DNA of 64,000 bases from Blasia pusilla (lineage: Eukaryota). The stretch is taken from contig CM114271.1 of assembly GCA_050084515.1 (NCBI GenBank), forward strand, positions 1,240,001 through 1,304,000, written 5' to 3'. A program made the translations under genes and the position numbers. Below are positions 612 through 38,755 of the stretch, in pieces (the first letter of the stretch is position 1; each line of letters opens with the position of its first letter). Under the pieces are notes generated by a model. It saw only the letters and a list, made by a program, of their open reading frames with translations. It made no database searches and was not told the origin of the DNA.

Positions 612-1613
612 TGTCGCGCCCCTACTCTCCTTGAACGTCAATCTTTAGTGTTGCGGAAGCGTGCGTTCAGTAGGTCACGAACTCATCGCCGATCTGCACC
701 CAAACACGCACTCTCGTTAGTCGGGTTTGGCCAACCAGCGTTCCAACCCACCCAGTCCTCAACTCGGCGTCTCATCAAGCTCAACCTTCCTTAGTTCCTA
801 GCTCCCAACACATGGCAAGTCCTTCAAGACTTGGAATAGACTTCCTGGTTAGTCCAGGGATCTGAAACGGCACTTACACGCCTAGCGATCCCAACTGTTC
901 AACAGTCCTCGTGTGAGTTCCGAACCGAGACCCAAGTAATTGAGTCGCGGCGTGAAATCCAAGAGGGATGTCTAAAATCGCCTCAATGGACTTGGTGCAG
1001 GTTTTCCAACCCAACGCCCAAACTCGCGTTCCGTTCCATGCCCTTGAGCCGCCCCGTGGCGCCCAAAGTGGGGTTTGGGTTCCAAGCACTCCCAGAGACC
1101 TTCCCCCTTACTAGTACTTCTGGGGTTCTCCAATAACCCCTCCCCTTTGGGAAAAGAGGTCCGGGCCCTTCATTGTGGCCCTCAACCCGACTCCACTTAC
1201 AGTCGTTTTTGGGTCGTATCTCGGCTGCTGCTTATGGGTTTGCAGCGATCTTTAGTGCGTTTGAACCGGCTCTCCATAAGCTTTCCAACGCACTCTTATT
1301 TGCTTCAAACGCATCTCGGCGCTAAAAGTTATGGCCATAAATACAGTCGGAAACTCTCAAACGCAAGTGGCGTTCCAAGTCCGGATCTTTCCTTTGGCAA
1401 CCCACTTCCTAGACTCGACTTCTTTCAAGTCTCATTCCACGTTTGGTCCAGGTTTCCGAGTCGCGACCATCATATCTGAAACGCGACTTCTCGCTCGCGT
1501 CTCATCTCTTGTCTCCTCTTTGAGACAACTCCAACGCGCAAACCATCTTAGCGTGAGCCCGCTAATGTTCCGATGTTCCGCTTGGCACTTGTTTGGTCAT
1601 GAGGGTCGCGACA
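612..1613 (-). repeat. 3' LTR of nested chromovirus
   Basis: Direct repeat of 6929-7924, TG...CA ends, adjacent purine tract on the minus strand. Confidence 0.95.
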
Positions 1614-2275
1614 CTCACCCCTCTTTTAGAGGTTGATGCCCTCATCAACGCAAACCTTTATTATGCCAAGTCTCCTGGGCAGCCTACCCCTTGACATTGA
1701 ATTGCGTTCTGGTGGCTAACCCGCAATTCCTCTTAGTCTTTAGTTGTCGCTTTGCCCCACTTAGAATTATTAGCCTCTCATCTTCGATAAGCCTGGACTA
1801 GTTCCAAGGAACTAACCTATCAAATAAGCTAACTAAGTGTGCAACGTTAGACTCTTTCGACTCATTCGTAAACATCACACCTGCTTACCTGGTCCACAAA
1901 TCGCACTACTATTGGGTCGCTCTCGATTCGACTTAGGCACGTCACTAAATTTACTTATGTGGCCACAAGTAAGATCACCCCAAGCCCCAAGACAGACTTC
2001 ATCCGCCTTCACGACGCTAGGGCGAGCCCGAGTGTAATCCAACACAAGGGTCTGTTCTAGGTGCTTATCCACATACGAGCTCTCACCTCAAATACTCCTT
2101 GTCGCCCTCTTGTCGTACATTCTAAGTCTATGATGAACGACTCATAGCCATGCACTACCACATACAAATTGCAATCAACACGGTATCGAATCTCCAAATC
2201 CATACACTCCTTTATTGCAACACTAGCATATTCTAGTTACAACGCCTTCGCCCAAGATTCCAGTGATTACAAGTC

Positions 2276-5200
2276 ATGTCTCTAGCTTCTCCTCATACTA
2301 ACGTATGTGCTTCGCTTGTGTTCGCTGAAGTCACACAACAACTCTTGCGTGTTCCAAATCCGCCTCCGCAATCCAAGTCGCCTCCTTCACATGGTAGCCC
2401 TTCCATTTTACCAAGTATTCATACTTGTTGGCCCGACGCCTCGAACGTAAGATGGTCTCGACCTCGAACTCCGGCTCCTCATTTACGATGACAAAAAGTG
2501 CGGTCTCACCTGTCTCGCTTCGAAACGTCCATTATCTTGAAGGTATTTCTTCAATAATGACGCATGAAAGGTCGAGTGAATCTTGAACTCGTCCCGGCTG
2601 ACCTCAACGTATACACATCCTCAAACGGGTTTGCCACAATCACATACGGTCCAAAGATACTTGGCAGACAACCCAGAGACAACTCTTTCGGAAGAGTGAG
2701 ATTCTTCACACTCAACCACACTTGTTCTCCAACTTGGAATCGTACTTGGCGCCGACTCTTGTTAGCATACTTCACGTACCTCATTTGAGCCTTTGCAAGA
2801 CTTCGCCTCGCGCTCACTTCTCGTTCTCGCATCTCTACCAGCAAACTTTCTACCGTCGCTTGTCGTGTTCGTGCTAATGTAGTACCCTTCGAAAGGGCTA
2901 GATCAAGAGGCCCTTCGGCTCTCGTCCATTTGCCAGGAGAAACGGAGATTCTCTGTTGCGAGAATAACGCTTGGTCGAGTTGTAGCGAGATTCCGCCATG
3001 CTCACCACTTGACCCAATCGCGTTGATCAAAGACGACATAATTCCTCAAGTATTGATTCACGATAGAGTTTACCTTTTCATCTGTCCATCCGTTTGTGGG
3101 TGGAAAGCCGTCATGAAACTCAGCTTGGTCTTAAACCTTTCGAACAAGTGCTTCCGAAAGCACGGTAAACTTGATCCCGATCTGAAACAATGCTCCTCGG
3201 CAAACCATGAGCACGCCACCGGCTATCGAGGAATAGTTGCGCCGTCGTATACGCCGTTATGGAATCCACCGTCGCACGAATCTCGCCAACTTGCTAAACC
3301 GATCAACAATCACAAGTATAGCGTTGTATCCCCAGATTCGGAAGACTCGTGATGAAATCCATACTCACACTTTGCAAGGGTCCTTCGGGATCGGCAAGGG
3401 ATGCAAAGCAAGCCCTGTTTCTTATCATAAGAGACTCTATTCGCTAAGGTGTCACACAGTCTTCACATATTGAGCAACATCCTCCTTCATGTTGGGCCAA
3501 AAGAACCGCTTCGATGAATGACTAGCGAGATTTCTCTCCTTTATGTCCGCCAAGGGCCCGTCGTGACATTCCGCTAACACCTTGGTTCGATTCCGCCTTG
3601 CCCTACATAGATCCTACTGTTTGAACCTTAGTAAACCGTGCCTCAAACTTATGTTGGCCACCTTCTCACCCCGCTTCAACTTCCTCGTATTCCCCGCTTG
3701 AGCATCCTTCATATATCCTTCACTTAATCCTTCTCTCCAGATCTGTTTCCTTAGGGAACATTGCTCTCAAGACTGTGTCGTCGATGGCATGTGTTCCTCC
3801 TTGCGACTTAACGATCTGGAATCACATTATCTTTACCTGGCTTGTGGATCAACTCTACATCCATCGGCCTAAGGTATCATGCCACCGCAGATTGTTTGGT
3901 GTCACTCGATCCTGGGTCTCAAAATACTTGAGTGATATATTATCGGTGAATACTCGAGTCATGTGGAGCCCTAGATAATGCCGCCACTTCCTCAAGCAAT
4001 GTACCACCGCGAACAACTCTTTCTCGTGAGTAGGCCATCTCCTTTCAGATCGCTAAGCTTCTTGCTCTCATATGCCACCGGTCTCCTTCTTGCACCAACA
4101 TTCCGCAACCGCGAAATCACTAGCATCGGTATGCACTTGAACGGTTTGTCAAACTCCGCAGACTTTAACATTGGTTCTGCGATAGAATCGCTTCACTCGG
4201 TTGAATGCCTCATTAACTTCCTAGGTCCAAGTCGTGTTGGCAAACTTTTCCGTCAATCCGTGAGAGGTCTCACAATTCCCGAAAAGTTTTTACATAAGTA
4301 CGGTAAAATTGCACCGCACCTATGAACCTCCTCATCCCTTTACAAAGTGGATGGGGTTCCCACTCGGAAATCGCTTTTACCTTTTCCATGTCCGGATCGA
4401 CGCCATCTGATCGACCACGTGACCCAAGAATTTGATCTTACTCAAACCAAATTCGCTCTTCTCTACATTCGCATACAACTGATTTGCCCTTAGCTTAGAC
4501 AAGACCGCTCTCACATGTCGAACGTGCTCCTCTAGTGACTTCGAATAGATAAGTATATCATCGATATAGATGATAACATACTCATCCATTTCCTTGTGAA
4601 AAATGGAGTTCATCAATGTGGTGAACGTCGGAGCGCGCGTTACATAGACCGAAAAGGCATCACTACAAACTCAAAGGAACAGATCTCGTCCGCACGCATC
4701 TTCTCCACATACGCCTCGGCAATCCGAATCTGGTAATATCGACTTCAAGTCAATCCTACTGAAATATCTCGCCGCCCTATCAAAGAGATCATCTATCCTT
4801 GGAAGAGGATAATTGTTCGAATCGTCACTTTGTTCAAAGTGCACGGTAATCAACACACACCTCATCTTTCCATCCTTCTTCTTTACAAAGAGAACAGGTG
4901 CTCCATAAGGTGACTTGCTAGTCCTAATGTAACCCTTTTCCAAGAGCTCACTTAATCGCTTTTTCAACTCAAGAAGTTCCTCCTGATTCAACCTATATGG
5001 TGCTTTTGAAGGCGGTTGGGAACCGGGTATGATCTCTATCTTATGATCTACGGCTCTATCGGCGGCAATTCAGTCGGAAGCTCATTTGTCAAGACATCCC
5101 CAAACTCCCTGGACCACTTCGGAGTGGTTCTGGGATTCCCCTTGAGGCGGCGTCCGATCTCTCACAGATATCGCTTGTAGCCTCCTCCACTTGTCTCATC

Positions 5201-6927
5201 AAGCGAGAGAAATCCATCCTCCAACTCAGTCATGCTCCTCCTCGTGATCGAGTTCACCAACTCCATCTTCGCTGGAACCTCACGGACCAACCGCACCTGT
5301 AATCGTTTGCCTTTTAGCAAGACGCTCAATCTCAATGGTCGGGCGTCTTAACTCCACCTCATACGCATCTAGGAATGTATTCCCAAAACTCCGTCAATGC
5401 CGCCCATTTAGATACAAAGTGAAATTCTCCTTCAACTCGAATACCCCGCATCCCTCTTGTCAAACCAAGACCAAATCAGAAGTCCGATGAGACTTGCCTC
5501 CTGCAAATCCCACTCGAATGGGCTCGTCCGCCTTAGAGGTAGACAGCCCCAGTTCCTTCATGATTCTCGGCCTTAGGAAGGAGTGCAAAGCACCTGTATC
5601 TATGAGCAACAACACATCGCGATCAGAAATCTTGGATCTTAGGTACACCAAATTGTGCGTCCTCTTGGTGACTTGAAGGGACGTCTCCATATCGCCCGCC
5701 AACAGATGCTTAGCAGCAAACGCAATCATACTCCCATTACTAACCTTCGGTTTCGAACACCCTTTCGACAGGTGACCCGGTTCGCCACAGTTGTAGCATA
5801 CGACCTTGCCGTTCTCGTCTTTGAGTGTTGTCCTCCTTTCGCCGCATGAAGTTCCACGCTTTTTCTTTGCCGGGCACGACTCTCCTGGTTCGTGTTGGCC
5901 TGATCCGGCCTCTTTTGAACGCCTCCTTATTTTTCGACTTCTTTGAAAAAACTTTTGACTCGAAGGGTTTCTGGGTTTGGACCTCATCGTCCCCAATCCG
6001 CTCCGCTAGCTTCAGAAGGTCCGCGCAGGTCTCTGGCAACGTCGGCATTCGGTAAAGGGCCTTCTCAGCGCTCGGCTTGAGTCCACTAATGAAGATAGCC
6101 TTCCTCGCGTGCTCATCCATCTTGAACTAGAAGTCGGGCCGCACTAAACTCCCTCACATACGCGCTTAAGGAACCACTCTGCCGCATCCGCACGCATTCC
6201 ACCGTGTCACGCAACCCTTGGTACTCCGGAGTGAACCGATCCCCAATCAACTCCTTGAACTCCTCCCAACTCAGAGGTGACTCACCGCCCATATATTCCT
6301 CTCGTTGAGCGGTCCACCATTGCAGAGCATGATCCTTAAGGAAAGTAACGGCTACCGTCACCTTGTCTCGCTTTCAGCTGACCTTCGCGCCTCGAAATCT
6401 GATTCGAGCCCGTAAGGAAATCCTTCACTTTCCGCGAGCGCCCCACTCCAGTAAATGGCGTGGGTAGGTTCGTCTTGCAGAGCTTTTTGCCCGCACTCGG
6501 GTTTCGAGTGGCCTCTAACTCCGCAATCTGCTTGCTTTGCTGGGACATCTGCTCCACCAACACCTTCAACAAGTCCAATGTCCGCTCGACTCCGCCCTTT
6601 CCCTCGAAGTTTGGGCCCACTGCCCCACGGAAGGAGTCGCCACTGGGACGTCCTCACAACTGGCGTTCAGCTCTTCGGGAGTCTCCGACTCCTCTATAGC
6701 TTCACGGTCCGGCATTGGTTCCTCTCTCGGTTCACGTCGCTTGATTCGGCACTTCTTGGGTTGTTCTCCCTCAATCGCCATCTCCAAGCCAACTCACTCA
6801 GATCTCCTCCTCGTTTCTTGCGTCCCTCCTCGGCGCCCGAGTCAGCCGCTACCTTGAAATTTCCCAAGCGTCCGGCTGATCCCACGACCCCAAGTTCTCG
6901 CTCACCAAGGATAAGCTCTGATACCAC
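2276..6927 (-). pseudogene. Frameshifted gag-pol: gag, CCHC knuckle, protease, RT, RNase H, integrase, chromodomain
   Basis: CYNCGEPGHLSKGC and LLIDTGA (ORF 5460-5996), YIDD (4377-4616), GPY-type integrase tail (2551-3039), chromodomain remnant at ~2290-2480 homologous to ORF 30920-31135. Confidence 0.9.
6915..6926 (-). promoter_or_regulatory. Primer binding site, tRNA-iMet
   Basis: Reverse complement reads TGGTATCAGAGC, 2 nt from the LTR edge. Confidence 0.95.
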
Positions 6928-6928
6928 T

Positions 6929-7924
6929 TGTCGCGCCCCTACTCTCCTTGAACGTCAATCTTTAGTGTTGCGGAAGCATGCGTTCAGTAGGTCACGAACT
7001 CATCGCCGATCCGCACCCAAACACGCACTCGTTAGTCGGGTTTGGCCAACCGGGCGCGTTCAACCCACCGAGTCCTCAACTCGGCGTCTCATCAAGCTCA
7101 ACCTTCCTTAGTTCCTAGCTCCCAACACATGGCAAGTCCTTCAAGACTTGGAACAGACTTCTGGTTAGTCCAGGGATCAAACGGCACTTACCACGCCTAG
7201 CGATCCCAACTGCATTCAACGGTCCTCGTGTGAGTTCAACCGAGACCCAAGTAATTGAGTTGCGGCGTGAAATCCAAGAGGGATGTCTAAAATCGCCTCA
7301 ATGGACTTGGTGCAGTTTTTCCAACCCAACGCCCAAACTCGCGTTCCGTTCCATGCCCTTGAGCGCTGGCGCGCCCAAAGTGGGGTTTGGGTTCCAAGCA
7401 CTCTCGGAGACCTTCCCCCTTACTAGTACTTCTGGAGTTCTCCAATAACCCCTCCCCTTTGGGAAAAGAGGTTCGGGCCCTTCATTGTGGCCCTCAACCC
7501 GACTCCACTTACAGTCGTTTTCGGGTTGTATCTCAGCTGCTGCTTATGGGTTTGCAGCGATCTTTGTGCGTTTGAACCGGCTCTCCATAAGCTTTCCAAC
7601 ACACTCTTATTTGCTCCAAACGCATCTTGGCGCTAGAAGTTATGGCCATAAATACAGTCGGAAACTCTCAAACGCAAGTGGCGTTCCAAGTCCGGATCTT
7701 TCCTTTGGCAACCCACTTCCTAGACTCGACTTCTTTCAAGTCTCATTCCGCGTTTGGTCCAGGTTTCCGAGTCGCGACCATCACATCTGAAACGCGACTT
7801 CTCGCTCGCGTCTCATCTCTTGTCTCCTCTTTGAGACAACTCCAACGCGCAAACCATCTTAGCGTGAGCCCGCTAATGTTCCGATGTTCCGCTTGGCACT
7901 TGTTTGGTCATGAGGGTCGCGACA
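6929..7924 (-). repeat. 5' LTR of nested chromovirus
   Basis: Direct repeat of 612-1613, flanked by PBS and TSD. Confidence 0.95.
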
Positions 7925-7929
7925 ATGAG

Positions 7930-9790
7930 GGTGTTGCAGTGGAGCGACCCTCTATGTCACGTATAGCATTGAGTACTAGTGCTACTTGGCAGGCAGCAGC
8001 GGCAAAGGTGGATGCATTACCAGCCCGGCCAGCCATTGATCGTGAGAGGCTTACACCTCGTGTATGTATGTTGGACAACCTGAGTGGGATATTCCGATTG
8101 GTGAGTCCTACAGGACATGTGTATAGACCAGATAGTGTCTTGTCAGACTCTGGTGCCCAACCTTTGATGTTGGGAAAGGTAGCATGTATAGATTTGGATA
8201 TTCGGAGGTCAGAGCTTGAGCCTTGCCCATTCCAGATTCAAACATCACTTGGAGGAGCCAATGATAGGTCTCAATTCATGACACGGTGTCGTATAGTAAA
8301 ATCAACCAGTGTGTAAACTCCTTCGTCATTAAGTGTTAGATAGAGTTTCATTAGTATTAAGTAAATTGGCTTAGAAAAAGGAGATTCTTATGTTTAAACC
8401 TCTTTATGGTGCCTCTTTTATGCGGGCCCAACTTTAGGAAAAGGAGGTAATAAATAAAAGATGACTTTATAAAAGTAAAGTAGTTGCTTTAATGAAAAGC
8501 AAAAGTAGTCTTGGTTGGTGGCTAGATTAGTTGGGGTAATTTGGAAAATATCATGTGGGTAAAAGAGGATATTTTGGAAGAGATAAGAGGAAATCTACTT
8601 GTGTCAAAATGTGATTGGCTAAGCCTTGAGAGGAAGCCATGTGGCACAAGATAAGATAAGCTCTATTTCGTACTCTTGTGGATCCCTTGTGAGTATATAA
8701 AGAGGAGGGACCTTCAAGGGTTCATCACCTTCTATTCCACATCTTGAGTCTCTCGTGTCTCTCTTGAGTGTATGGCTTTGGGATTGCTTGCTCTTCCAAT
8801 GAGAGTGGATCACCCCTCTTGGGAGAGTAACTTGACTATGGTCTATTCTTTGAGAGATTTCTAGAGTGTGGTGTGTGTGTGTGGGGATGAGAGGTTTGTC
8901 ACCGTAGAGGAGTTTAGTCATACTAAAATAGCGGAAGTTTTGGCTTGTCACTTCCCCAATGAGAGTGGATTACCCCTCTTGGGAGAATAACTCCGCCAAA
9001 ACCCATTCTTGAGGAGAGTAGAGAATGTGTGTCAAGCATGGATAGGGGTGGAGCACGAGCTGTGCCCGACTTTCCTTTCCTCAATCCTTACCATGTCAAG
9101 GTACTCTTTGTAGATAGGCACTGGTTCACTCGGTATTTAGTTTATCACTTTGGGGAGGCGTTCATGAACCGGGTCATGCAATCTCCAATTCCGGTAATCC
9201 TTCCTATCGTCACATATGGAAGGACATGGGATTGTACTTTGTATGTCCTTATATAGTGATCCATGGATGTCAATAGGCCTGCTCAAGTAGGGTTTAACAC
9301 TAGTTGTGCTATCTTCCTCGTGTACAAGCGTAAAATAGTCTATAGGGATTTTATAGTTAGGAATTTCGGGGTCCGATGTTACGAAGAAGTGATCGTCTCG
9401 GCACTTCCATTTGTGATACCTGTCGTGAGAGAATGGAGAGTGTACATCATAATTTTGTATTGAAAAAGGAGAACTTATTAGAGAGTTCACCTTGCATCAA
9501 CCGCATCTACCGTAGCTAGAAGGCCCGCCCTTGCTCGAAGAAAGATTCTCGACACGACAACGGGAGAAGTTTTTTGTACAGTTGAGACCAGATCATGCAA
9601 CTGATAGCTCCCTGTTGGGAGTACCTACAGTGGTCACATCAGCCGAGTTGTATGATGTACTAGTTGGAGGAGCAGTATTGTACCCGATGGGTTTTCAGAT
9701 GGATTATTGGACTAAGACAACGTCTTATAGACCTGGTTTGCAGTCCGGGGATGGACGTATGAGCCAAGTTCCTGTGAGATTTATTTATGG
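7930..9790 (+). pseudogene. Aspartic protease domain of copy A, split by a solo LTR
   Basis: VLSDSGAQPLMLG before the insertion and YDVLVGGAVL after it. Removing 8287-9563 restores ...FMTR|EKFF in frame. Confidence 0.75.
8287..9559. mobile_element. Solo LTR of an unrelated family
   Basis: Inverted termini TGTCGT...ACGACA, ACGG duplicated at 8283-8286 and 9560-9563, no recognisable coding domain. Confidence 0.8.
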
Positions 9791-10109
9791 GGCTCGACCA
9801 GGAGGGTCTTTCCCAATGGTGTTAGCATCTGTGGCTGGTTTTAGTGGAGTAGTCACTTGGCCAGGAGACTTTTTGGAGGGTAATGTTTCTGTTATGGATT
9901 CTCCTGTGCATGAGGAGGTAGAGGAGGTCCCTAGTTTTGCAGCAGTCGCATCCTCATCGTTGGATGTGCCACTTTGGAGTTCAAGCGGTGCACTACGGCA
10001 GGAGGCTGATCGCCTAGTGCAGGAGGCTTAGTGTGAGGCTGTTATACCTCACAAGGAAGAGAAGGCCCCACGGCGGACCCCTACTTCTGGTCTAGTTGGG
10101 TTATCCCCT

Positions 10110-10960
10110 TTGGATACTACACCCATTGTATGGCAGTTTCCGCCGGAGGGCATTTGTATGTTACATCTCATTTCCGCCATCAGCTATTCGTGGGTACCAG
10201 CGTGCTTTATCGTCACACATTGTATTGTTGGGGATGCAGGACCTTGGGAGGGTTGGTCCTGTGGATTTGGTGATTGCTGGATGGCCATGTCAAGGTCATA
10301 CACATGCTGGTTGTGGTGAGGGATTACACGAACCTAGGTCTCAATTGTTTTGGGAGATGTTACAGGTGTTACGACATCTTCAGGTTCATCAGGCACGTGC
10401 TCCAGCTTACATTCTGGAGAATGTTCCATTTTTGGGTGACACTCGGACCCGGATGATGGCGAGTGTTCATGAGGTGCGATCTTGGATTGGACCAGGGGTG
10501 TTGTTGGATGCAGCGCGAGTTGGCTCGCGTGCACATCGTCCACGCTCGTGGTGGACAAACTTCTTGCCTAGGGAGGTTCTACGTTGAGCATATGATGCAG
10601 TGCAACGGGATCCTTGCCTTACAGTGGATAGTATCTTGGATACTGGGCGACTTTCTCAAGTGGTGAGGGTTATTGATCGGTCACCCATGGTAGTCTTTGA
10701 ACCGTGTGTGGGCGACCTAGGATGGCACTACCCACATTTGTGAGTTTTCCCTCGTCACATGCCTACAGGGAAGGTGGTCCGGGCTTGTATGGGATTCTCA
10801 TGTGCGACAGTTGGTGGAGCCTAAGGCTGATGAGAGAGAGCGTGCAATGGGATTTGCTACTGGTGTGACAGCGTTTGCTTCCATTTCTGAGGCTTCACGA
10901 CGTCATGTGTTGGGTCAGGCCATGGACCTGAATTGTTTGACTTGGATTTTGAGTCTTGGT
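10110..10960 (+). pseudogene. DNMT3-like C5 cytosine DNA methyltransferase domain within pol of copy A
   Basis: DLVIAGWPCQG (motif IV, PCQ at 10285-10293), YILENV (VI, ENV at 10417-10425), LDAARVGSRAHRPRSWWTN (VIII), ERERAMGF (IX), RRHVLGQAM (X). Motif I/II segment deleted relative to copy B. Stop and frameshift present. Confidence 0.9.
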
Positions 10961-11326
10961 ATGCCCGAGCACCGTCGACTTCGGACTATGTCTGTGGGTC
11001 TTCCACCCCTTGTGATGAGCTCTCACCCCACATCTCTACCTAGACACTACGGCCCTACATAAGTTATGGCCTCTACTAGCACACTATACTCTACGACATA
11101 ATCCGTATGGTCATGACATCCATCCCTTGTGATGAGCTCGATGGCTACCGGGACGGTAGAGACATCGGCTGGGGGCGAGGAGAATAGTATTTTGCATCCT
11201 TGGAATAAATGGGATGTAATGGTTGGGCATGTGGAGTTGGTTGCTCATGCTGGTGGAGGAGTTATTTGCTCAGATGATGGTGTAGCTAAGGGTGTACCAT
11301 TTTGTGAGGGGGTTGCCTAGCAGCCA

Positions 11327-12910
11327 ATGGCGTCGTCCTCTCCCTCTAGTGTGCCAGTGGAGGAGACTTGGGAGCCATTACTTGGGCCCAAGCTTATGGG
11401 AAGTGAGAAACGACGCTTGACACAATTCCTACGTGCTTTTAGGAGTTGTTTTGCCTTTAGCATGAAGGAGTTGGGTGCTTTGGTTGGACCCGGTATACAG
11501 ATTGATCTGGCTAGTGATTCGCCAATCTTCCGTCGTCCCTATCGATATAGTGATATGGAGAGGGACCTGATTCAGAGTAGGACGTTGGACCTTTTGGAGG
11601 TTGGATTAGTGGAGTTGTCATATGGAGAGTATGCATCAGCCACTATCATGCCTGCTAAAAAGGATGTGCATGGCAACTATACGGATAGGCGGATGTGTGG
11701 AGATTACCGTCCTATCAATCGGCAGACCAAGACCGATAGGTATGCCATGTCTACACCTGAGGAGATCTTTCATGTGGTGGGACAGGCAAAGATTTTCAGT
11801 ACTTTGGATCTTCCGGAAGGATTCCATCAGTTTCCGATTCGAGAGAGTGATAAGGCCAAGAGAGCATTTTGGGGTGTCAACTCTCATGGCAAGGATTGTT
11901 TGTACCAGAGGAAATTCTTACCCTTTGGGTTGAAGAATGCACCTGCCGAGTTTCAGAGAGTGATGGACAGGATCCTAGCAGGGTTGGATTTTGTTCAGTG
12001 TTACATTGATGATATCTTGGTGTTCAGTAACATAGTGGAGGAGCATCAAATACATTTGCAGATTGTGTTTGAGCGATTGAAAGCTCATGGTCTACGCTTG
12101 CATCCAAGAAAGTGTAAGTTCTTCCATGAGGATGTTGAGTACTTGGGTCATGTGATCTATCCATGTGGTTTGGGAGTTCAGCAAGCAAAGGTGGAGGCTA
12201 TTGCACTTATTCCTCGTCCGGTAGATGTGAGTAGAGTTTGGGCATTCATGGGATTGGCGAACTACTACCGGAGGTATGTGAAGGGATTTAGTGCTATGGA
12301 AAAGCCTTTGAACCAATTGTTGAAATCAGATCACGAGTGGCATTGGGGAGATGATCAGGAGAGAGCTTTTGTGGAGCTCAAGGCCTAGTTGGTGGCGGCG
12401 CCTATCTTGAGGAGACCTCTCAGAGGGCGCCCATTTCAGTTACATACATATGCAAGTCGTTCGAATAATGTAGCGGAGTCGCGCTACAGTTCATATGAGG
12501 GAGAGTGTTTGGCAATAGTGTGGGTTGTAGCACACTTTAGGTGTTACTTGTTTGGCACAGAGTTTACCCTTGTTACTGATCACCTGCCGCTCAAGTGGTT
12601 GATGGAGTCTAACAAGCTTAGAGGGAAGCTTGCACGGTGGCCTCTTATCTTACAAGAGTATGACTTCCAGGTGGTACATAGACTTGGAGTTGCCAACCTT
12701 GATGCTGATGGGTTGAGTAGGAACCCATGTACTAGCCAAGAGGATGCAATTGGGGCTAGATGGCATGGCGAGGTTGATGAGGAGATGGTGCGAGGTTGGC
12801 ATGCATCCGCTTTTTTATGTTCGTTAGGGGTGGACTCTAGTATGGAGGACCACATGACATCTTACTCTAGTCAGAGGGTAGATGGCCAGCCTTCAGATCC
12901 TAAGGTTTGA
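11327..12910 (+). pseudogene. Reverse transcriptase and RNase H of copy A
   Basis: RMCGDYRPIN, LPFGLKNAP, YIDD, YLGH, then YSSYEGECLA and TDHLPLKWL. One stop between domains and an internal RNase H deletion relative to copy B. Confidence 0.93.
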
Positions 12911-13041
12911 GATGGTGGTACAAATCAGCGTGATATTCATGATGATGCTAAAAAGAATTTCCATTGGAGTTCCTACGGACCAGTAGGATGCTAGGCATAG
13001 TGAGTGCCAAGGAGTGAGACCGTGTTCTTCAACGTGCTAAG

Positions 13042-15120
13042 TGCTCGGCCATCACCAACACATAACGACTATGACCCTCCGTCAAAGGCAAAGGTCTTGC
13101 AAACCTAAACCCATGATCGAAAGTGGATGCAACTGTGGAGTTGGAGCATTGAACGATGCTTGGACTTGATCACACACCATGCATCTGGCAACAAACTGTT
13201 GAACGTCAGTCTGCATGCCTCGCCACCAATACTGAATCTGGAGCAAGTTGTGTGTCCGCTTCACTCCAAAATGACCCAACTCCTCGTGGGCATGACGCAC
13301 CAAACTTGCTCTCTATGAAGGATGAGGCACTGCACGCACTCTACCATCCTCCCACACTCGCAACACATGTGTGCCCTCCCACCAGAACTGTCTGGCTTGC
13401 TGTAGGATCCGATCCCGCTCTCTAGCATCCACTGTGCTTGCGACGCTGCTAGTACGCATGAACTCCAAGACCACTCCATTGTCGTGAAAACTCCTGGATC
13501 TACGGACTCTCCATCAGACCTCGCCATCAAAGTCTCAGCAATCTGGCTCTCCATAGCCATTTAGCCCAAATAGGATGACGCATGCCATTCTGGCACCAAC
13601 TCCTCATCACTCTCACCCTACCAACGAGCTCTAGTCGCATCTCGCTGACTCGGACATGGGTTACGGCTCAAACCATTTGCATCTTGGTTGAGCGCCCCAC
13701 GTCTATGCACCACTTGGAAGTCATACTCTTGCAACAAAAGAGCCCACCTCGCAAGCTTCCCTATAAGCTTCTCAAACTCCATCAACCACTTAAGTGGCTG
13801 ATGATCAGTAATGATGGTAAAGGGATTGCCGAATATATAACATCTAAAATGTGCGACAGCCCACACTGCAGCCAAGCACTCACCCTCATACGAGCTATAC
13901 TTCACCTCTTCAGCGTTGTTCGAGTGACTAGCATAAGCCACCAAGAACTCTCTACAATCATCGTCATGTTGGGTGAGCACGGCTCCAAGCCCCAACCATG
14001 CTCCAATCGGTATGCAACTGGAAAGGACGCCCCCTGATCGGTCTCCTCAATATGGGCGCGGACGTCAATATGTCCTTGAGAATCTGCAATGCTCTCTCTT
14101 GCTCATTCCCCCCAGTGCCACTCTTGATCCACCTTGGTTATCAAGGTTAGCGGCTTCGCAATCAAACTGAAGCACTTGACGTACCATCGATAGAAGTTCA
14201 CGAATCTCATGAATGCACGAACTCAACTCACATCTGTAGGGCGTGGAATGCGTGAAATAGTCTCTACCTTTGTCAGTTGGAGACCAAGGCCCCCAAGCTA
14301 TATCATATGACCCAAGTACTCAATCTGGTCGTAGAAGAACTTGCAGTTTCTTGGATGTAGCTTCAGCCCATGTAACTGCAATCGTCGAAATACCTCCTCT
14401 AGATGTCGCTCATAATCTTCAACCGTAGCGCTAAACACTACGATGTCATCAATATAACACCTAGCAAAATCCAGACCTGCCAAGATCCTATCCATGACCC
14501 TCTGAAACTCAGTCGGGGCATTCTTTAACCCGAATGGTAAGAACCGCCACTGGCACAAACAATCCTTCCCGTAAGGATCGATGCCCCAAAAATCCATCTT
14601 TTTCCTGTCCTCCAATCAGATAGGAAGCTGATGGTATCCGGCTCGATAATCCAATGAACTGAAGACCTTTGCATGCCCAATCGCATCAAAGATCTCCTCA
14701 CGGATGGGCACGCATACCTATTGGACTTTGTCTGCCGATTGATAGGTCGGTAATCTCCACACATCCGCCTATCCATCCAGTTTCCTTGCACATCCTTCTT
14801 GTCGCATGGAGAGTATGCATCTGCCACTATCATGCCCGCAAGGCATGACAGTGGCAGATGCATGCGACATTTCCACTAGTCCTGCTTCAACCAAGTCCTG
14901 GCTCCTACTCTGAATCAGAGCCCTCTCCATGTCACTGTACCTGTAGGGTGGTTGGAAGATCGGCGTGACACTCGAAAACTCAATGCGGATCCCTGGATCC
15001 TTCAGCATACCCAAATCATGCATACTAAATGCAAAACAGTTCCTATAACTCCTAAGGAACTAGTGTATCCGGCGCCGCTCTCCAGGTGTCAACTTAGGGC
15101 CCATATATGGCTCCCAAGTC
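13042..15120 (-). pseudogene. RT, RNase H and integrase zinc finger of copy B
   Basis: LPFGLKNAP, YIDD, LGAVLTQ...AYAS, HEELGHFG...CMVC. Ends at YVLVMAEH, so most of the integrase core is missing. Confidence 0.9.
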
Positions 15121-15439
15121 TCCATCGAGACTACGGTAGGACTCTCCGGCGCGCGTGTGGATGGTTGCTACGGTGCAACCCCGTCTCGGACAATAGAACT
15201 CTCATCTCCACGTGCAGTACCCGGAACCACACTCGATGCTGTGCCTATCTTTTCCTGGCGTACCTGCAAAACATCCCAAGAAGTCCAAGGGTGTCTCTTC
15301 CGATCACCCCTGGTGTGGTGATCTCCTCGGGTCTCGCCTCTGGCCAATGCCTTAATCGTCTCGGTATGCATGGGGCTTTCCAACGCAAGGGGTGCCTTAA
15401 TCTGTCGCGTCCTCAAACAACGTTGCTCAGCTACTCCTA

Positions 15440-16400
15440 AGCTAAAAATCCATGTCTAGCAGTTCAAGTCCATTGCCTCACCCAAGACATGACCTCGTGA
15501 TGCCTCTGATAGTGACGGTACTGCCGTCACTCCTGTTAGGAATCCCGTCGCTCGCTCTCGCTCATCGGCGTTGGGCTCCACCAGCCTCTATACTTGGTCA
15601 TCCCAAACCAAGCCAGGTCCGGCCTCCTTGAATGCATAGGAAGCAGGAAAACTCACCAATGTGGGAACGGCTGCCCGTGGCCTGCCAATCCTCTCCACCA
15701 AAGTCAACGGCGGTCCATCATCTAGCCTCACTGCCTGTGATCGACAGTGCGGATCCAATATAGAATCCACCAACAAATCAGAGGGGCGCTCCACGCTCGC
15801 ATATGCCCTTTGTAAAACCTCGTGTGGTACCAAGTTGGTCCATCAAAGATGTGGGCAATGTGTTCATGAACCCACACTCGCCGCATCTAACAACACTGCC
15901 GGGCCGATCCAAGCGTGCATCCGATGTGCACTCGTCACCACGCGGGACCTCAAATCGCCTAAAATTAGCATATTCTCCAAAATGTATGTTGGAGAACGAG
16001 GTTGATGCTCATGTAAATGTCGCAAGATCTGCATCATCTCCCAAAACAACATGGACCGAGTGTCAACTAACCCGCTACCTCGTCCAGCACTCGATTGGCC
16101 GTAACACCGCCAGCGAGCAATGACCAAGTCTATGGTCCCTACCCGCTCCAAATCCTGCGCCCCTAACAATGAAATGTCCCTTGGTAGGGAACTCTGGAAT
16201 CCTGAATGGCGGACGCAGACAACAAGTCTGGAAAATGGAGGCGTAACAGCGCCACATGGTGAAGTGAAGCGCGCCTCGCAACATCATCAATCCCCACATA
16301 TAGATACTGCTGCACGCACACTCCAACGTGCAAAACAGCAGCTAACCGAGTGCTGATCTCTCCAAAGAGATCCAACACCCGAATACCCTTCTCTGGGATG
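15440..16400 (-). pseudogene. DNMT3-like C5 cytosine DNA methyltransferase domain within pol of copy B
   Basis: IRVLDLFGEISTRL (motif I, ~16343-16385), YLYVGID (II), DLVIARWRCYG (decayed IV), YILENM (VI), LLDAASVGS (towards VIII), ERERATGF and RGHVLGEAM (IX, X). Frameshifted. Confidence 0.88.
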
Positions 16401-16816
16401 CACCACTCAATCGGGGTGGTGTCCAAAGGGGTCATAGCAGCACTCCTACCTACTTGGGGTTCCTCTCACCCGTCACACTCTGGTGCAAACGTCTCGCTCC
16501 ATGCGGTTTGCACATGCTCAATGGCTAAGCGTCGAAGCTCCTCAATCGAGCCCCAAAGCGGCACCTCTCCTCCACGGACTGATGCGGCTACCATGACACT
16601 CCTCTGTATAGAAATGTCAGGAACGGGAGTCTCCTCTGCATGGACATGTCCCTCAATCAAATCACTAGGCCAAGTGATGGCACTGCTAAATACTGCTAAG
16701 GTTGCCATCTCCCTTGGCCGTCGCTTGATCACTACACCTGTGAATCAAACGAGTAATGAGCTAAGGCGCCCATCACCTGACTGCCATCCTATTTTGTAGG
16801 ATGTTGAGTCCTCCCA

Positions 16817-18850
16817 TTAATCCAGGGAAAACCCCATCGGGTATAACACTGCTCCACCAACCAAGACCTCGTAGGACTCTGCATCAATCACTATCGCATT
16901 GGCTCGCACCACAAACTCATCTGTAGGGTGTCTTGGGCGAATCCTCACCACGACCTCCTGTCGGATGATAGAGTGTGTGGTACTTGCTCCACCCAATGAT
17001 GTTTGTATCCGAAATGGACAACCCTCCACATCGGCTCTCGTCAAGCAAGCCCAATCCTATGAATGACGCTTTCCCCAACATCAAGGGTTGCGCTCTTGAA
17101 TCCAACAAGACGCGCTGCGGACTAAAAGCTCTACCTCTGAGACTCACCAAAAAGAAGACCTCTCCCCAGTTATCGAGCAACACAAGACCAGGAGAAACCA
17201 TGGCACGCTCTATCTCGGATCTAGCGGGCATCTCCACCATCCTAATAGCCATAGCCATAGCCACGCCATGAATCTGATGTGGACGGCCCCAACATCCGCT
17301 CCAAGGGCAAGTCCATCACCTCCTCTGCAATCACCTCTGAATGTGATACAAGGACTCCAACTCCACGCTCACATAGCGTAGCGGCCAGCCAAAAAACCTT
17401 GGCGGGCGTACCTCCCAATGTCATAACATCGGAAGAAAAAAAGAAAGGAGCGCGGTACACAACGGTGGCCGCCCCCAACAACGTGCTCGATACATGCCCC
17501 TCCTGAGCATCAGCAATAGGAGTCATTGCATTCGCTTCTCCCATCACCCTCCGTGCCTCCGTGCCTCCATACCAACAACATCACCAACTCTCCAGGAACT
17601 CTAATCATGACCCATTGATAGGGTCCTCATCGCATCGGACAACGTGAAAGACTGAGGAAGCCTAGTCTATTTCGTAGATTCCCCTCACTGTGGATCCAAC
17701 TATGCGGTTGCTCCACGCGTCACAACTTTGGCGGCCTCCATCTGGGCAATCCTGCATATCCAACCAAGATCCTCCATATCTCTATTGCTCCATATGATGT
17801 CGATGCCACGGATCCGGCATCGGTAATCTCAATGCCATAGCGGCAATCTGCTCCTATAGTTGGTGTATCTGAGCAGCCATCCTAGCTTTATGCCCGAGGT
17901 CTCCCTCGACGCGTCTAGGTGGAGGGACTCCACGAGAAACTCCACCACCCTATCGAGCAACTCCAGCTCCTCGTCCCCCAACGGAACCACCTGGTGCACG
18001 ATCTCTAGGCCCACTCAGACCGGCTACTTGCTCTAGTGGCCTCTCTGGCCCTCAGTCCGGACGTAACTCGGGATGTAAACTGAAACATCTGGCGCATATA
18101 TGACCATACCTCTGACAATAGTCGCACTGATAACCTCCTACAGCACCATCTCCTCCTCCATGCTGAGGCACACGTCCATGACCCTGACGAGTGCAATCAC
18201 GCTGATGATGGGCTCCACCACATGACCAACAAGTAATCATAGGCGGTTGTTTCTGAGCCTCATATGAAGGTGCAAGTCTTTGTAGCATGGCCTCCTGATA
18301 TCCTCCTTGAGCTTCTGGTGCCACAGTCGACCTATCTCGGAGTCCACGTTGCTCCACAGGTGGTGCAGACAATCGTGACTACTCTCGCCCAGAACCCATG
18401 GTGGCTACGCTCTCCTCCGCCATGTTGCGCTCAATGTTCTCGGCGGTCCTAAAAACATCTCTCAACGTAGGGGAGGTGTTCATAAGAAGCATCCCCTCCC
18501 GCACCCGTGTCTGCAGGGCCTGGTCCAACATCGCGTACCATAACTAGATAGCCTGAGCCTCTGTCACCCCTCAGTGACGTTGATCAACCGGTGCAAGCGA
18601 GTGTAAGCCTCACGCAAACTTTCACCCGGGTGCCTCTAGAAGTCATGGATGCTCAACACCTTCTCCGTCCGTACCCCCTGGTAGCTCGCCCTCAACTTAG
18701 CGAAGAACTCAACCACGGGGTTGAACCTGGGACGAACCCGACTAGATGGTGCAACTGCTCCAGTGCGAGTGACCCTTCCTAAAATATCATGGGTGGAAGA
18801 GAAAGTAGCCTCTCTTGACTCCTCCTCCTCATCTGGGAATGGCTCCATTC
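16817..18850 (-). pseudogene. gag (two CCHC knuckles) and protease of copy B
   Basis: CWSCGGAHHQRDC and CDYCQRYGHICARC, VLLDSRAQPLM, YEVLVGGAVL. Confidence 0.8.
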
Positions 18851-20239
18851 ATGACATATAGTGTGGGTCATAGTAGAGTCACCATGCCTCAATCTCATGG
18901 GCATATCTGTGGGAGAACTCATGGTAATCGTCCATAGGCCCCCCCTCTAAATGCTAGAACATACCATTCTATGTTGTAAACGGGTTGAACTTTCTAGAGT
19001 TCCTAGCCCGCTGTGTGTCACATCAACTCCTACACTCTGCAATGAAGTCGTATAGCTCTATAGTGCCTATAGCACCCGAAAACCTGCGCGGTCCTCTACC
19101 TCGATTGTCCATCTCGTACCCCCAATTGGTAGGACCACTCAATGTGTACAGTGAATCACTAACACACTCCTCTATACACTCCCCCTCGTCTGAAGACACC
19201 ACAGAAGGAGATCGAGGTGGTCTCTCACCTGGAGACCCTCAAAACCTCGCACCACTCTGGGTAAACCCTCCACAGCTACTCTCAGGTCCACTACCTCGCC
19301 TCTCAAAATCCCAAAAGGACGCCATGATGGCCCTCGTGCTTCTCTCACACGATCACTCTCAATCTTGCGAGTAATCCCTCAATTATTCAAACTAAACATG
19401 CGGCACTCAATCTACACTCTCTCACTGAGACGTGTGCTCTAAGGCAACAAGCAGCGTGGTACGGCAAATCAACCGATCTATTGTCTCATCGATAAACCAT
19501 CCTCAACTCTCGACATCCCACACAGGTCTATGTCCCCTAAATCCATACATCATTGATGCTCCTAGCATCAACACGAAACCCAATATCCCAAATAACTTCC
19601 CAATATCCAGAAATCCCTCACACGAGCAGGGTAAGAGACCAGAAGGGATAACCTGACAATCATGTCGATGTTGCTCCTCGACAATTGCAAATCTCGACCC
19701 CAACTCAGTCATGAAGACAACTCCTCCAATCAGCAGGTCATACTCCTCTCATACTGACGCTGCTCAAACCTCCTCGATGTGCGATGCAGGTCGGGTGGGG
19801 CACTGGTGGCACGGAACGGCTTCAAATGGCACGGCACTCGGTGGCATACCCTCCTCAATCAGAAATTCACATGCTTTGCACCTTAGTGAAGGAGTGGCTC
19901 CGCAATCGAGACGGTGCGCTGCGGCCACAAGCGGCACGGCGCGGCAATCAGCGGCGCGTTGCGGCTATGGGCGTCACGGCACCGTACTCGATCATCATTG
20001 AGTGGCTACCAATCCCAACATAACAACATGAAATGAAAACTCAAAGACCATAACCCGAGGCTACATGCCATCACTGGTTGATGACGAAACTGCGATGACG
20101 GTGGCGGCCAAACCAAAGTACGTGATGGCGGTGCAAGTTAGAGAATCAACGGTGGTCGTGGAAGACCCTCCACTCCATAATCGTGGAAATGGCAACCAAA
20201 GGGTGGACAACGGCCGAACGCGGCTCTGAGCAACGCTAG

Positions 20240-20400
20240 GCGACGACAGCGGCCGACGATGGATGGTGGACCGTTGATGGTGACGATTGACCCTTAATGG
20301 TGACGACGGACCATTGATGGTGACGATTTACCGTTGATAATGACGGTTGACCATTGATGGTGATGGCTGACTGTTGACCGTTGATTGTGACTATGACGGC
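20240..20400. repeat. Degenerate ~20-bp tandem repeat (GACCRTTGATGGTGACGRTT) in the leader of copy B
   Basis: About six imperfect units visible by eye. Confidence 0.7.
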
Positions 20401-21489: not shown

Positions 21490-23343
21490 AAGAGTCATTA
21501 TGCTTGGATGAGGCTCTTGCTCATTCTCAATGGAGAGAGGCCATGGAGATGGATGATGGACGCTATTCAAAGATAAGAAACTTGGACTTTGGTTAAGAAT
21601 CCAAAGGACAAGAACATAATATGCACCAAGTGGGTGTACAAACCAAATATAAGTCGAACGGTATATTGGATAAACTCAAAGTGAGGTTGGTTGCATAAGG
21701 ATGTTCATAGATCAAAGGTTTTGATTACTGTGAGACTTTTGCTCCTACTGTAAGGATGACAATCATTCAAATTGTTCTAGTGGTGGCAGAAACAAGACGT
21801 TGGTCTATATACCAATACGATGTGAAGTCTACTTTTCTGAACAAGAGTCTCAAGGAGGAGGTGTATGTATCTCAACCACCTAGTTTTGAGACACCCGGAT
21901 CAGAAGAGAAAGTGTATTTGCTTCATCGAGCATTGTATGGGTTGAAGCAAGCCCCAAGGGTATGGTATGGAGACCACAGCTGAAAATAGAGGAAATGAAG
22001 GAAGTGTTGAAATATGAGTTTGAAATGTCAGATTTAGGTCTTTTGCGCTACTTTATAGGGCTGGAGATTTGGCAACAGTCAGATTCTATTTTTCTCTCTT
22101 AACAAAATTATGCTAGAGAAATCTTAGAGATACTCGGGAAGACCGAGTGTAAGGCAGTGGTCTCGCCAATGGAGGTCGAGTTGAAACTTTCAATGGAGGA
22201 TGTTTCACCATTGGTAGATGAAAAGTTGTACATAAAGCTTGTGGGAAGTTCCATATTTTTGTGCAACACAAGACCAGACATTAGCTTCGCTGTGGGAGAG
22301 TTGAGTAGGTTCTTAACTAAGACTTGTGAGAATCATTGGAAGGCAGGGATGCGTGTGTTGAAGTACATCAAAAGCACTATTGAGTACGGCATCACCTATG
22401 GAGCAGGGACGGAAATGACACCCTTTTGTTACTCGGATTGGGCAGGAGACTCAGATCCTCGGAGATCAGTTTCGGGTTATTGTTTCTTAGTAGGATCAGG
22501 TGTGGTGTCATGGGTCAGCAAGAAGCAAACTACATTGGCTCTTTCTTCTACCGAGGGAGAGTACAAGGCGGGTTGCTATGCTTCTTGTGAAGTAGTATGG
22601 TTGAGATGGATATTGGAGGACATAGGAGAAGCACCAGAAAGTGCTACTCTAATATGGTGTGACAATCAGAGTTGCATTGCCATAATACATAATCTTGTGT
22701 TTCAGGCTCATACGAAGCACATAGAGATCTAGTACCATTTTTTGAATGAGTTGATCGAGAGAGAGGTTTTGAAGTTAGTCTATTGTCCAACAGAGGATAA
22801 TCGTGCAGACATCTTCACCAAAGCTTTGAGCGGAGATCAGCTTCAACGACATGTGAAGGGTCTTGGCATTGGTCCGAGACAATAGTCCATATGAGAGTAG
22901 ATATTGAAGGGGGGGATGTTGGATTCTCAACATCCACTTCTCTGAGCACTATTAATCTAATCGGCCCCCTTGTATGAGGAGAAGTTGGCCTAGATTGATG
23001 GTTCCGACTTAGACGTCGAAGGAGTTATAGTAATATGACGTAGGTGGTTTTTGGAGAAGTGTTGCTAGGATTATCTAACCCTATATTTTATCAGGGTGCA
23101 GCGCACTCTAATGCAAATTTTTTTCAATTAATAGAAACAAAGAAAAATAGGTAAACAACCCTAGTTTCCCGAGAAGTGAAATAGTTGGGAGCAGCAGCGG
23201 TAGCGCATTCTTGTATGTCGAGTTATCTCTATGTTCACGTTCCATCGAAGTTCTTGTGTGAGCGCACGGACGGACTATGCCACTTTATATCTCCAAGATT
23301 TGTAATAGATTTCAGTGATTTCATCACATTCTGTTTTCTCACA
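21490..23343 (+). mobile_element. 3' half of a Copia element (RT, RNase H, PPT, 3' LTR), abutting copy B
   Basis: YDVKSTFLN, LYGLKQAPR, YSDWAGD, SKKQ...SSTEGEY. PPT GAAGGGGGGGA at 22906-22916, LTR starts TGTTGG at 22917. LTR end is approximate. Confidence 0.85.
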
Positions 23344-38750: not shown

Positions 38751-38755
38751 CATCT

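Follow-up and report, generated by a model that had tools for sequence, protein, structure and literature searches.

Analysis of a 64,000-nucleotide stretch of Blasia pusilla DNA (GenBank assembly GCA_050084515.1, contig CM114271.1, positions 1,240,001 to 1,304,000), referred to below as the window, revealed a family of Ty3/Gypsy long terminal repeat (LTR) retrotransposons that carries a DNMT3-like DNA methyltransferase (DNMT). Segment 15440-16400 is the DNMT of copy B, a decayed element on the minus strand at about 19097-13032. Copy A, likewise decayed and from the same family, lies on the plus strand at 76-611 and then at 7939-13041, with two insertions. In this family the first reading frame encodes Gag (CCHC), protease (PR) and DNMT, with DNMT as the last module, and ends at a conserved in-frame UAG with CAR as the next codon. 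The domain has been held under purifying selection, and both copies in the window are dead. A joint probability of about 0.85 is given to these conclusions on identity, anatomy, selection and the inactivity of A and B. The window itself is ordinary, a eukaryotic and retrotransposon-rich region with two dead relics of the family.

The methyltransferase domain of copy B

The DNMT core of copy B occupies 16375-15462 of the minus strand and was identified as a C5 cytosine methyltransferase with colinear motifs I, IV, VI, VIII, IX and X. A methyltransferase with linear motifs had been predicted at 15440-16400, and the motifs were found to span 16375-15462. The peptide quoted in this original prediction, EKGIRVLDLFGEISTRLAAVLHVGVCVQQYLYVGIDDVARRAS, was read inside a stop-to-stop open reading frame (ORF) at 16163-16465 of the minus strand; in the three-frame view, the remainder of the methyltransferase continues in a second frame. 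The letters quoted there for DNMT3A, IRVLSLFDGIATGL...YIASEV, are likewise present in the Protein Data Bank (PDB) alignment.

Frame-aware alignment to an intact relative showed that copy B covers the DNMT core in full (325 of 325 reference positions), interrupted by four in-frame stops and one frame change. In this alignment, all on the minus strand, motif I reads LDLFGEISTR (16375-16346; family version LDLFGGISTG), motif IV ARWRCYG (16118-16098; AGWPCQG), motif VI ILENML (15983-15966; ILENVP), motif VIII THCPHL*WTN (15863-15834; AHRPRLWWTN), motif IX ADERERATGF (15569-15540; ADERERAMGF), and motif X GEAMDLN (15482-15462; GQAMDLN). All six motifs are thus in order, and motifs I, IV, VI, VIII and X bear substitutions or a stop. 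Copy B had been proposed to supply motif I of the family; the motif is present there, in degraded form only, with E and R replacing two family glycines. The domain is complete in outline and catalytically dead, because the catalytic Pro-Cys has turned into Arg-Cys.

A tblastn search of the window with the Marchantia protein P0011 aligned 311 residues at 57.9% identity (16202-15270; joint E value, 1e-171), which places the match far above chance. The longest DNMT ORF fragment of copy B scored 19.8 bits with Pfam DNA_methylase, under the cut-off of 22 bits because the frame change splits the domain, and a phmmer search of the PDB with the longest fragment returned 0 matches at an E value of ≤1. 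The domain of copy B is therefore recognisable only when read through the frame change, and the decisive signal needs intact relatives.

Copy A and its divergence from copy B

Copy A carries the same domain at 10161-10933 of the plus strand, between the protease and the stop that precedes the reverse transcriptase (RT). The position between protease and RT is shared by both copies, as had been predicted. Motif I of copy A is degraded (LHLISAIS) and the next 43 reference positions are absent, and motifs IV (AGWPCQG), VI, VIII, IX and X are intact as read. The core contains one stop and three frame changes. Both window copies are thus inactive relics.

Comparison of the DNMT cores of A and B revealed an identity of 64.7% at the DNA level (codons) and 60.4% at the protein level. 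Protein identity was 57.3% for RT and 75.4% for RNase H, and amino acid identity was 34.8% for the PR-DNMT linker and 28.4% for the DNMT tail. The claim of a diverged linker beside a well-aligned DNMT is borne out by these values (34.8% versus 60.4%).

The tail-to-tail arrangement of A and B, with inverted arms that match, could also result from a recent local inverted duplication of one element, in which case the shared DNMT would be uninformative on the family. The matching arms (I1-I5) are just 70 to 89% complementary, blastn of A versus B gave 66 to 75% identity, and the DNMT codons are 64.7% identical with a synonymous divergence (dS) of about 1.9. In addition, both the DNMT and the RT tree put A with 38 metagenome loci and B with or beside the relative L036, and the read depths of A and B differ about 20- to 100-fold. 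A recent duplication, which the original prediction had named as a possible objection, is refuted by this divergence in DNA identity and by the separate lineages in both trees; its probability is close to nil.

DNMT3 type of the domain

To classify the domain, intact relatives were compared with the PDB. The top match of the relative P0001 was DNMT3A (E value, 6.1e-12), with a colinear alignment of query residues 47-231 (motifs I to VIII) and 320-353 (motifs IX and X). A family profile built from 14 relatives (A2) matched DNMT3A at 7.7e-17 and DNMT3B and DNMT3C at about 1e-15. Matches of this profile to DRM were weaker (5.8e-7 and 3.8e-5), and only the profile N-terminal positions 1-122 aligned, with the C-terminal part of DRM (residues 233-348), a pattern that circular permutation predicts. 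The bacterial M.HaeIII (9e-6) and DNMT2 (3.7e-5) were also matched, and no DNMT1 chain was found at an E value of ≤0.01 in the profile search of the PDB. An AlphaFold model of the domain reached a predicted local distance difference test (pLDDT) value of 63.6 and a predicted template modeling (pTM) score of 0.70. Among the matches listed by Foldseek for this model, all were DNMT3A, DNMT3B or DNMT3C, with a top E value of 1.9e-13 and template modeling scores by target of up to 0.71.

The family carries all six catalytic motifs, I (FxGxG), IV (PC), VI (ENV), VIII, IX and X. In 13 members with identities down to 35%, WPCQ, ILENVP, AHR.R..WTNL, ADERERAMGF and LGQAMDLN were among the conserved residues. 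Pfam DNA_methylase (PF00145; cut-off, 22 bits) was detected in six of six relatives at 26.1 to 49.5 bits, in L074 at 51.1 bits and in L036 at 49.0 bits. Pfam scans of the family polyproteins revealed neither PWWP nor ADD. According to the available part of a 2025 survey of DNMT evolution (PMC12344493), the companion domains of DNMT3 differ across lineages, so their absence here is compatible with DNMT3 membership. These results indicate that the family domain is DNMT3-like in sequence and, as modeled, in fold. The linear I-to-X order, which had been predicted to be of the DNMT3 type and not of the permuted DRM type, is supported by the PDB alignment and the profile search.

Selection on the domain and agreement of the DNMT and RT trees

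Selection was assessed by the pairwise Nei-Gojobori ratio of nonsynonymous to synonymous divergence (dN/dS) and by a transversion-only ratio of non-degenerate to four-fold degenerate sites, which is insensitive to C>T/G>A decay. For the DNMT core of A versus B (273 codons; dN, 0.296; dS, 1.93), dN/dS was 0.15 and the transversion-only ratio was 0.17 (13/187 versus 31/75). The corresponding values were 0.19 and 0.115 for RT, 0.12 and 0.188 for RNase H, 0.32 and 0.198 for the PR-DNMT linker, and 0.67 and 1.447 for the DNMT tail, the last from few sites. In the open-frame pair L074 and L077, the DNMT dN/dS was 0.125 at an unsaturated dS of 0.26 (RT, 0.24); in the open-frame pair L072 and L074, it was 0.12 (RT, 0.065). 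These ratios show purifying selection on the DNMT of roughly the same strength as on RT, and the linkers flanking it are far less constrained than its core. The domain had been proposed as a stable, probably selected part of a diversified family, and the DNMT ratio of about 0.15 beside 0.19 for RT supports this. A DNMT dN/dS near 1, which would speak against selection, was not observed; the pairwise values are far lower (0.12 to 0.15 for A-B and the open-frame pairs; 0.17 for transversions only).

DNMT and RT trees were calculated from 44 of 82 rows covering both domains; rows with <80% DNMT or <60% RT-RNase H coverage were dropped. Both trees were made by a quick method and contain long branches (copy B and L070), and only their deep agreement was used. 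In both, the sister group of A consists of 38 metagenome loci. B was placed with L036, in an unresolved fork of the DNMT tree and with 48% support in the RT tree, and a third lineage comprises L070, L072 and L074. Of the strong splits, 9 of 13 in the DNMT tree were recovered in the RT tree, and 9 of 11 in the RT tree were recovered in the DNMT tree. The congruence check suggested along with the original prediction thus gave agreement on three deep lineages, with few shallow conflicts. The DNMT was acquired before the A and B lineages split.

The domain might instead be a neutral passenger, a fragment of a host DNMT3 captured once and useless to the element. In favor of this, A and B are broken, and most copies in the metagenome are decayed like them; an open frame of at least 400 amino acids on the match strand is present in just 10 of 80 metagenome loci. 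Nevertheless, a passenger is very improbable: its dN/dS would not be expected to resemble that of RT (0.12 to 0.15, with linkers at 0.3 to 0.7), the catalytic motifs are invariant or nearly so among members that are 35 to 50% identical, the same deep lineages appear in the DNMT and RT trees, and related domains are widespread, with 392 clusters at an E value of ≤1e-30.

Anatomy of the family and the conserved in-frame stop

The open-frame relative L074 contains a frame of 1,369 amino acids with gag, aspartic protease and DNA_methylase, one TAG, and then a frame of 1,047 amino acids in the same phase, in which Pfam detected RVT_1, RNase H, integrase and a PHD finger. The junctions of L072 and L036 are like that of L074. 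In the family, RT-RNase H-integrase continues in phase after the stop and, in open-frame relatives, includes a PHD finger; the element order gag, protease, RT, RNase H, integrase holds in copy B (Pfam and tblastn) and in L074 (Pfam). The stop is located at the identical point, right before 'QP..', in 57 of the 59 junction-holding rows (of 82), A and B included. These 57 stops comprise 41 TAG and 16 TAA, and CAA or CAG is the next codon in each. By junction alignment, the stop of copy B is the TAG at 15168-15170 (minus strand), followed by CAA CCA, and that of copy A is the TAG at 11318-11320 (plus strand), followed by CAG CCA. Several annotated Marchantia proteins terminate at this conserved stop.

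UAG-CAR-YYA is a leaky-stop signal in tobamoviruses, and gammaretroviruses use a gag-UAG-pol arrangement. Given these parallels, the conserved UAG-CAR stop suggests that RT, RNase H and integrase are made by read-through. It might also be a true translation end, with RT-RNase H-integrase produced via splicing, re-initiation or a separate RNA. Fifty of the 57 contexts lack the final A of CAR-YYA, and the annotated Marchantia model P0031 extends past the stop into RT residues, presumably via a predicted intron. On the other hand, the phase never changes from one frame to the other, L074 and L072 have just one stop at the junction, and both the stop and the CAR codon have been retained in lineages with saturated synonymous sites. 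Among the RNA skips listed, the only one near the site (117 bases, 11006-11124) is also present in DNA reads. A true end is therefore considered unlikely, and read-through is preferred.

Some further features of the anatomy were recorded. The open-frame integrase ends in the PHD finger (40.6 bits; L074 5086-8226, ORF2 residues 990-1034), in the place of the chromodomain of chromoviruses. The more distant members P0055 and P0057 have a second architecture, RT-RNase H-DNMT-integrase-PHD, and P0058 to P0060, polyproteins of 3,456 to 4,737 amino acids found in a search limited to proteins of 3,358 to 5,000 amino acids, carry these domains too. L036 has a second in-frame TAG at 3192-3194, at the boundary of protease linker and DNMT, in the context TAG AGT GGT; this is probably a mutation and not a signal.

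Range, copy number and transcription of the family

A first protein search revealed 57 matches at an E value of ≤0.001 among 579 candidates, including 16 from Marchantia polymorpha, all annotated as hypothetical only, three from Calypogeia fissa and one from Sphagnum troendelagicum. A profile search gave 65 proteins at ≤1e-10 among 8,000 scored candidates, with Sphagnum fallax, Closterium, Mesostigma viride, Chromochloris zofingiensis and Haematococcus lacustris among the named sources; Sphagnum jensenii was added by cluster look-up. Taken together, the named sources point to a bryophyte host. A protein atlas search yielded only 'Streptophyta' and phage methylase clusters in addition. In a representative library, 7,591 clusters matched at ≤0.001 and 392 at ≤1e-30, many of them polyproteins of 1,000 to 3,400 amino acids.

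Read depth was determined from a subsample (about 1 in 100) of a whole-genome run, with depths given as the sum of two mate classes. Depth was 100 to 650 at copy A and about 5 to 30 at copy B, and 10,283 of the 10,581 whole-genome reads at copy A were 95 to 99% alike. This contrast, together with the likeness of the reads, indicates that A derives from a high-copy, fairly young family and that B is a lone old relic. Mismatches between reads and window at copy A were T>C at 80 places and A>G at 68 places (T or A in the window, C or G in the reads), versus C>T at 36 and G>A at 35. The excess of T and A in the window fits a decay of copy A by deamination, to judge from the direction of the mismatches.

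In two stranded RNA runs, the DNMT and RT of copy A were covered almost only in one direction (depth of 5 to 79 versus mostly 0 to 5), and copy B was barely touched. The RNA reads were 95 to 99% alike in 864 of 888 and in 786 of 826 cases. A 117-base (39-codon) skip at 11006-11124, in the DNMT tail of copy A, was present in 272 DNA reads (the majority) and in 46 RNA reads. As it occurs in DNA as well as RNA reads, it represents an in-frame indel that varies within the family and not an intron. In the same tail, at 10835-11368, both runs showed an RNA peak in the opposite direction (first mate on the plus strand, 5.6 to 18 deep), which could be an antisense transcript or a family fragment inside another transcript.

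Base composition was also inspected. The observed-to-expected ratio of CpG was 1.01 in the nested Gypsy element without DNMT (612-7924) and 0.28 to 0.70 in DNMT-bearing elements, open-frame ones included, a difference that with a single comparator is a hint only. On the coding strand of DNMT-bearing elements (9561-19097; L036, L072, L074), CpA (1.43 to 1.56) exceeds TpG (1.14 to 1.33); the values for the neighboring Gypsy element are 0.95 and 1.07. The CpA excess could be due to strand-biased deamination or merely to codon usage.

Several points weigh against the reading presented above. The dS between A and B is near saturation (proportion of synonymous differences, 0.69), so that their dN/dS is approximate and mixes a selected phase with later neutral decay; if anything, the real constraint during the active phase of the lineages was stronger than the A-B ratio. 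The trees come from the quick method, and 2 of the 13 strong DNMT splits and 1 of the 11 strong RT splits conflict, all inside a shallow group. Residues 247-305 of the AlphaFold model, the target-recognition part, are poorly modeled (pLDDT, <50). The junction scan ran upstream to the first in-frame stop, so that a stop is there partly by construction, which does not apply to its identical position and context. The full CAR-YYA context is present in 7 of the 57 stops, the other 50 being CAA-CCC, CAA-CTC or CAA-CCT. A repeat scan detected no LTR pair belonging to A or B in the window, where both lack their 3' ends and A extends beyond the window start, and no LTRs were found in L074, L072 and L036, whose contigs are possibly too short. 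As the RNA reads are mostly 95 to 99% alike, it is the family that is transcribed and not copy A itself, and the label 'sense' for this RNA assumes the usual convention for stranded libraries. Finally, the yeast assay of the algal element KnitGypsy-Dnmt3, described below, was inconclusive according to the available part of its report (PMC5890265).

Proposed mechanism and target

RT, RNase H and integrase would arise from occasional read-through of the leaky UAG, as the junction sequences suggest. The DNMT, as the last module of the abundant Gag-PR-DNMT product, would hence be made in the same amount as Gag. The protease of the element may then release the DNMT by cutting within the two weakly conserved linkers that flank it. 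The position of the DNMT as the last module before a leaky-type stop offers a concrete point on dosage and processing.

By analogy, the DNMT may methylate the element's own new DNA or insertions, mainly at CG, and thereby shape how the host epigenome treats them. This function, which the 2018 paper proposed for the algal counterpart (PMC5890265, available part), is a prediction for the present family and is held tentatively, at somewhat below even odds. A rather less probable alternative is that the domain is functional on another target, such as host DNA, rival elements or element RNA, or that it recruits silencing to cap copy number. The lack of the reader domains of host DNMT3 and the predicted Gag-level dosage would suit such a role, as would the depletion of CpG in DNMT elements even with open frames (0.28 to 0.70 versus 1.01 in the neighboring Gypsy element), a depletion compatible with any heavy methylation. 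Against it, the fold and the best matches are those of DNA-acting DNMT3, with DNMT2 far lower (3.7e-5), the present data do not separate the targets, and the CpG comparison rests on one element without DNMT.

Methylation of the element's own DNA remains the preferred function. Its fullest form, in which a green alga-to-bryophyte Ty3/Gypsy lineage, still high-copy and transcribed in Blasia pusilla, makes a DNMT3-like enzyme at Gag level via a leaky UAG and writes CG methylation on its own new DNA, is doubtful as a whole. If true, part of the de novo methylation of early land plants would have been written by transposons and not by the host, and the CpA over TpG excess on the coding strand would reflect deamination of methyl-cytosine in the first-strand cDNA. 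The benefit that an element draws from a methylase of its own could be addressed in organisms for which transformation, methylase mutants and methylomes exist.

Layout of both elements and their surroundings

The layout was derived from tblastn with the Marchantia proteins P0011 and P0007 and from Pfam scans of copy B fragments. In copy B (minus strand), gag with a zinc-knuckle region (18064-19097; tblastn; 11 stops and 2 frame changes) is followed by the aspartic protease region (17046-17490; tblastn with P0011 and P0007), the protease-to-DNMT linker (16376-17045; tblastn), the DNMT3-like core (15462-16375; tblastn and frame-aware alignment) and a poorly conserved tail or linker from the core to the stop (15171-15461). 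Beyond the stop lie RT and RNase H (13618-15167; tblastn; RVT_1, 75 bits; RT_RNaseH, 103.5 bits), subdivided into RT at 15167-14130 and RNase H at 14095-13621, and the zinc-binding part of the integrase (13032-13312, finger at 13312-13082; Integrase_H2C2, 63.7 bits), where the copy is cut off near 13032.

In copy A (plus strand), a gag remnant (76-611; tblastn) is separated from the rest by a nested younger Ty3/Gypsy-like element without DNMT (612-7924, minus strand), whose LTRs (612-1613 and 6929-7924) are 95.8% identical over 1,008 nucleotides. The first part of the protease (7939-8295; tblastn) is followed by a 1.26-kb insertion in the protease region (8296-9560), the protease end with the PR-DNMT linker (9561-10160; tblastn), the DNMT core (10161-10933; tblastn and frame-aware alignment) and, after the stop, RT and RNase H (11321-13041; ORFs and tblastn), after which the copy is truncated. 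The 1.26-kb insertion has a lower GC content and contains a 62-nucleotide repeat pair (8796-8857 and 8956-9017; 77% identical).

At 13032-13103 the 3' ends of A and B abut tail to tail, A stopping before the integrase and B inside it, and eight whole-genome reads link 13041 to 13357 on opposite strands. Just past the gag end of copy B, at 20268-20394, there is a tandem array with a unit of about 20 nucleotides (five overlapping 40-nucleotide copies, 63 to 100% identical). A Copia-type RT reading frame is located at 21711-22102 (plus strand), and another Gypsy-type RT-RNase H, 28% identical to P0007, at 38752-39813 (minus strand).

Comparison with known systems

Compared with the catalytic domain of animal DNMT3A, DNMT3B and DNMT3C, the element domain shares the I-to-X order and has there its best sequence match (7.7e-17) and its best fold match (1.9e-13). 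It differs in being about 20% identical and without PWWP or ADD, and its target-recognition stretch is modeled without confidence. Plant DRM belongs to the same wider clade and is matched more weakly (5.8e-7 and 3.8e-5); it is circularly permuted, whereas the element domain is non-permuted. As with the leaky UAG of gammaretroviruses and tobamoviruses, one in-frame UAG separates the upstream structural frame of the family from the polymerase frame downstream, and CAA or CAG comes next, with YYA after it in 7 of 57 cases. In contrast to these viruses, protease and DNMT are located upstream of the stop in the element, most decayed copies read CAA-CCC, and read-through is deduced from the junction sequence.

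The kind of element described here was already published in 2018. KnitGypsy-Dnmt3 of Klebsormidium nitens is an LTR Gypsy retrotransposon with a Dnmt3-type domain (de Mendoza et al. 2018, Nat Commun 9:1341, PMC5890265); this and the following statements on published elements refer to the available part of that report. The same work described DNMT-bearing DIRS and LINE elements in Symbiodinium and proposed self-methylation of retrotranscribed DNA. SymbioDIRS-Dnmt3 and SymbioLINE-Dnmt resemble the present family in being retrotransposon-borne methyltransferases under purifying selection with agreeing DNMT and RT trees, and SymbioDIRS-Dnmt3 conferred de novo CG methylation in yeast. They differ in being a DIRS element with a tyrosine recombinase or a LINE, in a different host kingdom, and are regarded as independent acquisitions (PMC5890265). 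Transposons that bear their hosts' own silencing enzyme turn the usual arms race around, which is rare; the literature searched documents them in Symbiodinium and a single charophyte alga only. The 2025 survey, in its available part, cites just the 2018 report (PMC12344493). The literature search yielded no report of a DNMT-carrying retrotransposon in Marchantia, liverworts or mosses, although an earlier mention may exist, above all in the DNMT trees supplementing the papers of 2018 and 2025.

KnitGypsy-Dnmt3 is the closest counterpart and was compared by description, as no Klebsormidium protein was among the named matches of the family searches. Both have an intronless, non-rearranged Dnmt3-type domain in the coding region of a streptophyte Gypsy element, with conserved key catalytic residues; Ka/Ks between KnitGypsy-Dnmt3 copies is <0.2 (PMC5890265), and dN/dS here is 0.12 to 0.15. 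The KnitGypsy-Dnmt3 domain is in the Pol polyprotein ORF and the element has DIRS-like repeats (PMC5890265), whereas the domain described here ends the Gag-PR frame before a conserved in-frame stop, and no terminal repeats were found for A, B, L074, L072 and L036. The host of KnitGypsy-Dnmt3 is a charophyte alga, and the relatives found here are from bryophytes, which are land plants, and other green algae. The present evidence thus extends this kind of element to land plants, among them Marchantia polymorpha, a laboratory model. The bryophyte range and the Gag-PR-DNMT frame with its conserved leaky-type stop are additions without precedent in the literature searched, and the transcribed high-copy family is a further addition worth reporting.

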